9,242 nucleotides of DNA, from the IMG/VR virus record IMGVR_UViG_2529293240_000018. One strand, given 5' to 3'. This DNA comes from a virus (Duplodnaviria; Heunggongvirae; Uroviricota; Caudoviricetes). The notes under the pieces were generated by a model. It was not told the origin of the DNA. It made no database searches and saw only the letters and a program-made list of their open reading frames with translations. The translations under genes and the position numbers were made by a program. Every line of letters starts with the position of its first letter. The stretch's first letter is position 1. Shown here in pieces: positions 3,960 to 5,967 of the stretch.

Positions 3960-4455
3960 TTTCTTCAGCCCTCATCATGGTACAGTTGGAACTCCACGGA
4001 CCGCCCACGGTTCGCGAAGTAATGGTGTGTATCACCCCTGTGATCGTATAATCGCCCGTCATATCAGGCAGTGACGATTCCAGATGCGCTGGCCTGCCAG
4101 TAAAGAGATCGGGGCAGAATATCGTGGTGGCGCTGAGTCCGGTCATGGTGTAAACCGGATAGCCAGTCAGTCCGTGATCCGGCGAAATCAGTACCGGCGG
4201 AATATTCCGGTTCTGCCCTTTCGGCCAGATGGTGACTTTCTCCACATTCCCCAGATCAATGTTAATATCGGCGGCTGAAGCGACATCCAGCATTTGTTGT
4301 ACAACATTACCGGAAAAATGCGGGTCAGACAGACTGCGGCTAACCCCCTGGTTTTCAAATCCAAGCCCGACAGTTGACGCCAGCGCACGGATAATATCTG
4401 CAACCGCAACATCGCCCTTTGCGCTGAAATCTGCCGCCGGTGAAGTGGTCAACAA
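3940..4455 (-). pseudogene. Phage baseplate hub-like protein (Mu gp44 / P2 gpD-like by position), N-terminally truncated by IS911
   Basis: The first 5 codons of the 171-aa ORF (LLTTS, TTG start) are translated from the IS911 terminus (4441..4455); native sequence starts at 4440 in mid-protein. Identity is inferred only from position upstream of gpV. Confidence 0.4.
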
Positions 4456-5288
4456 AAACTGGCCACCGAGTTAGAGTTTTTCCAGTATCGATTTTCCGAT
4501 TCGTTTGGGGGTAACCCACCGTTATATTCGTGCGGTCTTAGTGCGCTGTAATATCCAACGATATAGTCCGTTATGGCGTGAGCTGCCTCGCTGAAGCTTA
4601 CGTAACCCACCACCGGCATCCATTCGTTCTTCAGACTCCTGAAGAAGCGTTCCATTGGGCTGTTATCCCAGCAGTTTCCGCGCCGGCTCATACTCTGTCT
4701 GATCTGGTATCGCCACAATAACTGCCGGAACTGCCTGCTCGTATAATGACTGCCCTGATCGCTGTGGAACATCACCCCGCCGGGCTTACCACGGGTTTCC
4801 CATGCCATTTCCAGCGCTTTCATGGTGAGCCTGCTGTCCGGCGAGAACGACATGGCCCAGCCCACTGGTTTTCTTGCGAACAGGTCGAGAACAACGGCGA
4901 GGTACGCCCAGCGCTTACCCGTCCAGATATAGGTCACATCACCGCACCACACCTGATTTGGCTCGGTCACGGCGAACTGCCTTTCAAGGTAGTTAGGGAT
5001 AGCAACATGTTCATGACCACCACGTTTATACCGGTGAGTCGGCTGCTGACAGCTGACCAGCCCCAGCTCTTTCATGAGCCTGCCAGCAAGCCAGCGTCCC
5101 ATCTGGTAGCCTCTCCGGGTTGCCATTGTGGCGATGCTTCTTGCTCCGGCCGAACCGTGGCTGATGCCATGTAGCTCAAGTACCTGACTGCGTAATACAG
5201 CCCGTCTGCCGTCTGGTTTTTCAGGACGGTTTTTCCAGTATCTGTAGCTGCTGCGATGAACCCCGAACACATGGCAGAGTGTGACCAC
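4449..5288 (-). CDS. insO: IS911 OrfB (DDE transposase domain; expressed as an OrfAB fusion)
   Basis: Translation ...[39 protein letters not shown]...[13 protein letters not shown]...[18 protein letters not shown]... The frame stays open upstream to the slippery site at 5360-5366 (..[34 protein letters not shown]..). Confidence 0.85.
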
Positions 5289-5314
5289 AGGATAATGCGC
5301 TCTGAGTTTCCCGA

Positions 5315-5616
5315 TTATCGAGAACTGTTCAGGGAGTCTGACATCAAGAGCGCGGTAGCCTTTTTTAATATTTCATTCTCCATTTCAATGCGTTGTAGCT
5401 TTTTCCTGAGCTCACGGATTTCAATTTGTTCCGGGGTAATGGGGGAGGCTTTTGGTGTTTTGCCCTGACGCTCATCACGCAGTTGTTTGACCCATCTTGT
5501 CATTGTGGAAAGGCCAACATCCATAGCTTTGGCGGCATCTGCCACCGTGTATTTCTGGTCAACAACCAGTTGAGCGGATTCGCGTTTAAACTCTGCGCTA
5601 AAATTTCTTTTTTCAT
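5315..5616 (-). pseudogene. insN: IS911 OrfA (HTH/leucine-zipper regulator) with a start-codon lesion
   Basis: Body reads [51 protein letters not shown]...[19 protein letters not shown]. The ATG at 5614-5616 is followed by A6 and is out of frame with the body; one more A would give ATG AAA AAA AGA = MKKR. The 124-aa ORF in the track starts at a GTG straddling the IS boundary and is an artefactual extension. Confidence 0.75.
5360..5366 (-). promoter_or_regulatory. IS911 programmed -1 frameshift heptamer A AAA AAG
   Basis: Minus strand reads ttA AAA AAG gct in the orfA frame (ILKKATALL), and the orfB frame is open across it. IS911 OrfAB production by -1 frameshifting at this motif is established knowledge. 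Confidence 0.6.
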
Positions 5617-5685
5617 TGGAGCACCTGTGTTGTTCTGAGGTGAGCATATCACCTCTGTTCAGGTGGCCAAATTCAGTGTGCCACT

Positions 5686-5967
5686 TCACTTTAGCTCACC
5701 GTTTTGCAGGAGAATGTCGAGCACATCCATCTGGTCGATTTCAACCAATCTACGAAGAACATAAGCGGCATCTATACCTACCTCTTCGTTTCGCTCGGCT
5801 TTAAGCTCAGCAATGCGCTTTGCGATATTAGCTTTTATTAGGTTTTTGCATCCTTGTACGGCGGCAGAATCCTCACTGTAACCCGCCCTGATGGCTGCTT
5901 GCGTGGCATTGAGATCTTTCAGGTACTCACGGGCAAACAGCTCTTGTTTGTCGGTGAGCTTTGCCAT
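5686..5967 (-). pseudogene. Phage terminase small subunit (TerS), N-terminal 93 aa, C-terminally truncated by IS911
   Basis: MAKLTDKQELFAREYLKDLNATQAAIRAGYSEDSAAVQGCKNLIKANIAKRIAELKAERNEEVGIDAAYVLRRL... has the typical small-terminase N-terminal motif (MAKLT.KQE.F..EYL.D.NATQAAIRAGYS). The stop codon is the TGA of the IS911 terminus. A GGAG Shine-Dalgarno sits about 10 nt upstream of the ATG. Confidence 0.75.

Follow-up and report, generated by a model that had tools for sequence, protein, structure and literature searches.

The window analysed here is 9,242 nt long and forms the end of contig AFOW01000022.1 from Shigella flexneri SFJ17B. Most of it consists of insertion sequence (IS) elements placed back to back, interrupted only by two scraps of phage DNA. 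A copy of IS911 separates the two scraps, joining what remains of a terminase small-subunit gene (terS') to what remains of a baseplate hub gene (hub'). The prophage they come from is of the ipaH type, with a lambdoid early and lysis region and an E217-like contractile-tail module, and is dead. Comparison with intact and partly deleted relatives suggests that the IS911 joint is probably the end product of several steps, rather than of one 15-kb deletion.

On one side of IS911, the open reading frame (ORF) 5686-5967(-) encodes residues 1-93 of a 184-aa terminase small subunit, identical at 93/93 positions to WP_001096650.1, and matches Terminase_2 (PF03592) with 96.5 bits (cut-off 26.1) over profile positions 1-87/141 only. 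Its stop codon, TGA, is formed by the first three bases of the left terminal inverted repeat (IRL) of IS911. On the other side, hub' corresponds, with full identity, to the final 166 codons (residues 124-289) of a protein of 289 aa, named 'baseplate hub protein' by PGAP. A full-length relative scores 32.6 bits against PF22759 (E217 gp41; gathering cut-off 27), and the fragment alone 21.4 bits, below that cut-off. Start codons usable by hub' lie only inside the right terminal inverted repeat (IRR), and the nominal 171-aa ORF begins there at a TTG (4455). A sequence-only reading of the window had described a 93-aa N-terminal TerS fragment that ends in the left IS911 terminus, a hub-like fragment that starts in the right one, and a missing target-site duplication, and all three features are borne out by the TGA within IRL, by hub codons 124-289 abutting IRR and by the bases flanking the element (CGG|IS|CTT), which leave it without a 3-bp duplication.

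The IS911 copy is 1248 bp long and 99.0-99.2% identical to RefSeq E. coli elements annotated 'IS3-like element IS911 family'. Its ends, TGAAGTGG...CCACTTCA (5'-TG / CA-3'), are 27-nt imperfect terminal inverted repeats with arms that are 75% complementary. Both orfA (HTH_Tnp_1, PF01527; ending at 5315) and orfB (rve, PF00665/PF13683; 4449-5288) lie on the minus strand, in 0/-1 phases, with an A6G -1 frameshift slippery site, AAAAAAG, at window 5366; OrfB scores 302 bits against NF033516 (transpos_IS3). The missing duplication bears on the history of this copy, not on the identity of the element, and is expected for a copy after an adjacent deletion or recombination between IS copies. At 5607 an A-run is one nt shorter in the window than in the complete S. 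flexneri chromosome CP100042.1, and orfA appears frameshifted at its start; this difference is probably a 454 homopolymer error, for which reason the idea of a frameshifted, dead IS911 was dropped. The 110-aa form of OrfA is not specific to this copy by exact look-up, and, judged by its sequence, the element looks transposition-competent. It resembles canonical IS911, first isolated from Shigella dysenteriae, in its length (~1250 bp), TG...CA ends, imperfect terminal repeats, orfA/orfB arrangement with an A6G -1 frameshift site and 99% identity to annotated copies. It differs from the canonical element in having no 3-bp duplication, which is explained by later deletion, and in the one-base homopolymer difference at the start of orfA, probably a sequencing error. 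IS911 transposes by a copy-out-paste-in route, according to Chandler et al. 2015 in the form in which that work is cited in PMC11708052.

Table 1 Elements and phage remnants in the 9,242-nt window of S. flexneri SFJ17B. L001, ipaH prophage region of EIEC VL46.
Feature	Position	Strand	Remarks
Partial IS3-family element	1-717		Interrupted by IS2
IS2	718-2043	-	NCBIfam IS2 TnpA/TnpB, full length; truncates baseplate J; nested in the IS3-family element 1-717
Left-hand phage remnant (baseplate genes J', W-like, spike, hub')	2044-4440	-	blastn to L001 24831-27230, 99.75%
J'	from 2044	-	~290/413 codons; cut by IS2 at 2043/2044
Sheath-initiator/W-like gene	2913-3269	-	
Spike gene	3282-3959	-	
hub'	3940-4440	-	Codons 124-289 of 289; baseplate hub gene, E217 gp41 family
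IS911 (IS3 family), apparently intact	4441-5688	-	IRR 4441-4467; IRL 5662-5688
terS'	5689-5967	-	Codons 1-93 of the 184-codon terminase small-subunit gene; stop 5686-5688 from IS911 IRL
Right-hand phage remnant, 737 bp	5689-6425	-	blastn to L001 8870-9607, 99.46%
IS600-like IS3-family element	6426-7710	+	Truncates both neighbours, a phage hypothetical gene (at L001 8870) and an IS66-family element
IS66-family remnant	7711-9242	-	TnpA and TnpB pieces and N-terminal TnpC pieces

To place the two breakpoints, the intact ipaH prophage region of enteroinvasive E. coli (EIEC) VL46 (L001) was used as reference coordinates. This prophage ends in ipaHa and adjoins yfaS-yfaQ-yfaP. In blastn, window 2044-4440 aligns with L001 27230-24831 and window 5689-6425 with L001 9607-8870, both flanks on one strand of one prophage, leaving 15,223 bp between the breakpoints (L001 9608-24830). 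This interval, positions 1565607-1580829 of NZ_CM177010.1, holds the 3' half of terS, 18 complete genes and the first 123 codons of hub. Among the 18 genes are terL, portal, head-morphogenesis, scaffold/capsid/cement, neck, sheath (DUF3383) and tube genes, as well as those for a tape-measure-like transglycosylase, a Dit-like baseplate protein and the plug. The expectation of the sequence-only reading that terS is normally separated from the baseplate genes thus holds, at 15.2 kb and 18 genes in intact relatives, and the alignment of both flanks to such a prophage, which it had proposed as a check, gives the gap its size in VL46. It had also named a phage with naturally adjacent terS and hub as the finding that would speak against a loss; in VL46 the 18 genes lie between the two, and natural adjacency was rejected, since both genes are truncated relative to full-length homologues. 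A phage database search with both flanks returned short mosaic matches on the terS side only and none for the baseplate side; it was among complete E. coli genomes that VL46 was identified. As a separate observation, terS is mosaic: its first ~300 bp (window 5689-5988) are 100% identical to VL46 and CFSAN029787, against 83% for the prophages of FDAARGOS_943 and RMDEC332/364/465, whose terS 3' part is 99.3% identical.

The same joint structure is present in CP100042.1 (L005), which is 99.92% identical over window 1-7710. Over that span the two sequences differ by one SNP (single-nucleotide polymorphism) and by five one-base homopolymer differences, at window 1985, 5607, 6101, 6895 and 7666. The window is always the shorter; as a result, orfA of IS911 (at its start) and orfB of IS600 look frameshifted. 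All five differences are probably 454 undercalls, not biology. In CP100042.1, three remnants of one prophage backbone (L001 6212-7294, 8870-9607 and 24831-27230) are colinear and share one orientation. An independent Logan contig (L009) carries the IRR|hub junction and the junction of J' with IS2 (J'::IS2), both at 100%. A repeat-collapsed IS911 that joined unrelated contig ends in a 454-era draft would produce a comparable picture, and the source is a draft with homopolymer errors whose contig ends in IS sequence; given the identical arrangement in an independent complete chromosome and the IRR|hub junction in L009, we attach next to no credence to an assembly artefact. Neither the whole joint nor the IS911/terS junctions occur in 5,426 complete E. 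coli genomes, and the exact terS|IRL junction pattern has no match in GTDB species genomes or JGI metagenomes. CP100042.1 also contains (L005:4346-6489) an extra partial IS600 of ~857 bp between IS600 and the IS66 remnant, a repeat that the draft contig may have collapsed.

Sister S. flexneri contigs, retrieved via exact look-up of the J' and W-like proteins, display an older state of the same remnant. Five of them (L007, L008, L012, L013 and L017) start at IS911 IRR, enter terS at L001 9651 (codon ~108) and run through the terS stop and 264 terL codons to L001 10678. From there the sequence jumps, free of any IS, to L001 23960 in the Dit-like baseplate gene, a deletion of 13,281 bp with a 4-nt microhomology, TGGT (joint at L007:1051-1054); the resulting terL/Dit fusion is a 289-aa ORF (P0046) found on 17 contigs. 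Beyond the deletion, the five contigs carry plug, full-length hub, spike, W and J. Their IS911 sits in terS ~43 bp downstream of the window breakpoint, in the same orientation. The sister type is represented, for example, by an NCTC S. flexneri strain with SUI56700.1, by strain 2850-71 and by the strains behind ERR591080 and SRR18753390. Three of the five (L007, L008 and L017) end exactly at the J'::IS2 junction of the window, which is also found in L009 and L005; in L012 and L013, J is intact and IS2 absent. Contigs from three further S. flexneri assemblies (L047-L049) all stop at L001 9649, extend backwards as far as the Rz gene and lack IS600 at L001 8870, and represent the IRL-side partner expected of a simple IS911 insertion at ~9650. 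Other breakpoints were seen in passing. Another S. flexneri lineage (L014:1-29, L015 and L016) has an IS600-type end at L001 24159, 8 nt upstream of plug, which is the third independent case of an upstream cut into this remnant. In L028:4112-6852 (UGGJ01000005.1), another copy of the prophage family, a different IS-free deletion runs from just after portal to the Dit-like gene.

The order of events was read from an alignment of the 2.4 kb shared by the window and its relatives. One derived base in it is common to all S. flexneri remnants, and a T at alignment position 101 (T101) occurs only in the IS2-bearing sequences, namely the window, L005, L009, L007, L008 and L017, the last three of which have a private G>A. 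On these characters the window type would be sister to the L007 type within the IS2 clade. L012 and L013 fall outside that clade, yet share with L007 the 13.3-kb deletion and the IS911|9651 junction, so the only homoplasy-free tree puts both of these in the ancestor of the window type. Two derived SNPs link the terS' scrap to the S. flexneri contig L047, which fits a descent of terS' from the same remnant. Because the window shares J'::IS2 and T101 with deletion-bearing contigs, its ancestor most likely already lacked the head and tail block, and IS911 would most likely account for only ~1.9 kb (+43 bp) of the loss. The earlier proposal that IS911 marks where the structural genes were lost is thus right in that the element sits exactly at the joint, and falls short in that most of the loss is IS-free in sister strains.

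A simpler history would have one IS911-associated event, either recombination between copies in terS and hub or one adjacent deletion, remove the whole 15.2-kb block. The joint has the form expected of such an event, with colinear truncated flanks, intact IS ends and no duplication, and the window keeps no sequence able to show the 10678/23960 joint, so that direct proof of the earlier deletion from it is impossible. However, the window has the J'::IS2 junction and T101 in common with contigs in which the 13.3-kb deletion is IS-free, and this deletion is also found in contigs without IS2. A single event would thus require two separate IS2 insertions at one and the same base, together with a parallel SNP, and we regard it as unlikely.

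In the stepwise history that we favour, IS911 would have inserted in terS near codon 108 (L001 ~9650), after which an IS-independent deletion of 13,281 bp at TGGT would have fused terL codon ~264 to the Dit-like gene, taking out the portal, head, neck, sheath, tube and tape-measure genes; both states are displayed by sister strains. An insertion of IS2 in J, likewise seen directly, would have come third. In the window lineage, an IS911-adjacent deletion would then have extended, on the IRR side, from terS 9651 as far as hub codon 124 (24831), at the cost of 9651-10678 and 23960-24830, or 1,899 bp, and the IRL junction would have shifted from ~9650 to 9607 with a loss of 43-46 bp. This last step would have kept both IS ends exact and erased the target-site duplication; exact ends, no duplication and colinear flanks are the signature of an IS-adjacent deletion or of recombination between direct IS copies. 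Most likely, by the route documented for IS3-family elements, further copies of IS911 would have landed close by in matching orientation, followed by homologous recombination with the resident one. Partner copies are plentiful, as Shigella genomes carry IS911 at many loci. This route predicts two intermediate junctions, hub-N...AATCAGCCG|TGAAGTGGCAC and ...CCACTTCA|AAGCCCATTAAAGAC. Two accessions, EFY6033874 / EFY6033487, which represent a 730-bp terS' scrap and a full-length hub seemingly in one assembly, hint, from the accession numbers only, that the IRL-side change preceded the hub deletion.

A transposase-dependent adjacent deletion could take the place of homologous recombination in the last step, and the final sequence would be the same for either. 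It seems highly doubtful that the resident IS911 trimmed both of its flanks (43 bp at IRL, 1.9 kb at IRR) by transposase-driven intramolecular events instead of RecA recombination, possibly guided by the known attraction of IS911 to its own ends. If true, this would be evidence from a natural population for two-sided adjacent deletion by a copy-out-paste-in element.

Several points weigh against the stepwise history. It is a parsimony argument on few characters, one SNP and the IS2 junction set against the deletion joint and the IS911|9651 junction, and its SNP signal could be blurred if prophage copies resident in one genome have undergone gene conversion. For the ancestral state, the flank on the IRL side is pieced together from separate contigs and protein accession numbers, and no contig spanning IS911 was obtained from a strain of the sister type. 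Two-sided trimming presupposes a minimum of two further IS911 insertions plus one or two recombinations, and no strain with an IS911 copy in hub, the predicted intermediate, was found. In an exact look-up, none of eight predicted ancestral, intermediate or reciprocal proteins was present in a collection of 15 billion proteins, a weak negative, as pseudogenes often go uncalled.

A different origin for the joint, two source prophages being the other finding that the sequence-only reading had named as speaking against its view, would be recombination between IS911 copies in two prophage copies or remnants, uniting terS' of one with hub' of the other; this would entail a large chromosomal inversion if the remnants were mutually inverted, and otherwise a deletion or translocation. 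Opportunity for such an exchange exists, in that Shigella and EIEC genomes hold several copies of the prophage family (two in CFSAN029787, and two each in UFYX01000005 and UGFN01000003) besides their many IS911 loci. The remnant adjoins trg-ydcI-ydcJ in S. flexneri and yfaS-yfaP in EIEC, so IS-mediated relocation has occurred. An upstream holin segment is ~94% identical to VL46 where terS' reaches 99.5%, and the terS breakpoint lies at 9607 as against ~9650 in the sister contigs. Yet a single intact prophage, that of VL46, is 99.5-99.8% identical to the two flanks, the remnants follow its order in one orientation, and an S. flexneri contig of the type with IS911 at 9650 has derived SNPs in common with terS'. 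The reciprocal products (hub 1-124 into IRL, and IRR-terS 94-184) are absent from the 15 billion proteins, which counts for little given how often pseudogenes are left uncalled. Overall, we consider a chimeric joint quite improbable. An inversion within one prophage, the alternative to a deletion raised by the sequence-only reading, is excluded by geometry, as the terS 5' and hub 3' parts are colinear and IRL and IRR are on matching sides. In its own right, the tRNA/holin scrap (L005:1563-2650) is 93.8% identical to VL46 and the neighbouring terS' scrap 99.6%, a contrast that goes back either to the natural mosaicism of lambdoid phages or to a further IS-mediated chimeric joint.

The last step of the stepwise history resembles what is described for IS150, also of the IS3 family, in the E. 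coli long-term evolution experiment (LTEE): in the account of it in PMC11708052 that bears on these events, adjacent deletions are multistep (insertion, adjacent deletion, extension), leave no duplications and grow with time. In both cases an IS3-family element has exact ends and no duplication, and DNA is lost beside a pre-existing copy. The window differs in that its element is IS911, its host a natural Shigella lineage and both of its flanks apparently trimmed, and in that its intermediates are known only from sister strains, not from a time series. Losses of the rbs operon in the same experiment are reportedly IS150 adjacent deletions as well. The defective lambdoid prophages DLP12, Rac and Qin of E. 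coli K-12 have likewise lost morphogenetic genes through deletions and IS insertions while keeping lysis and packaging scraps; the window prophage differs from them in belonging to another family, with an E217-like myovirus tail, and in its much heavier IS load. Taken as a whole, the joint is known biology: a known element, a known kind of joint (IS3-family adjacent deletion) and a known kind of host genome. It does not go beyond the usual outcome of IS expansion and prophage decay in Shigella, and the phage DNA around it is non-functional debris. The joint offers a clean, datable case in which an IS-free microhomology deletion came first and IS-adjacent trimming later, and it illustrates that only part of a gap may be due to the IS found there, with sister strains needed to apportion the loss. 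Beyond this bookkeeping its significance is small. For annotation, terS', hub' and J' are best treated as pseudogene fragments of one ipaH-type prophage remnant.

In the host chromosome, the prophage remnant adjoins trg-ydcI-ydcJ-opgD (L005:10961-17972), with IS2 nested in the IS3-family element (window 1-2043). As the VL46 prophage lies at ipaHa/yfaS-yfaQ-yfaP and the remnant at trg, the tail-fibre/ipaH end has been separated from the remnant. The intact relative in VL46, ending in ipaHa, resembles the ipaH-carrying prophages and remnants of Shigella and EIEC chromosomes; the window remnant differs in having been cut from the tail-fibre/ipaH end by IS2 and in its present place beside trg. In the portions of PMC8072062 and PMC9046306 concerned with these loci, chromosomal ipaH genes are described as sitting among prophage genes, pseudogenes and IS elements, with IS-driven rearrangement in Shigella. 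The right-hand phage remnant contains, besides terS', a 67-aa ORF and a hypothetical gene of 198 aa, of which IS600 has left the 3' end. The 67-aa ORF, annotated DUF2560 in phage records, gave no Pfam match here, and its exact look-up returned matches only in intact E. coli prophages. The SFJ17B contig ends inside IS sequence, and in CP100042.1 the phage holin/tRNA segment comes after the IS66-family remnant. The exact spike protein of the window, whose look-up led to many other prophage copies and not to the sister locus, was found in 1,351 collection blocks, often in at least two copies per Shigella genome.

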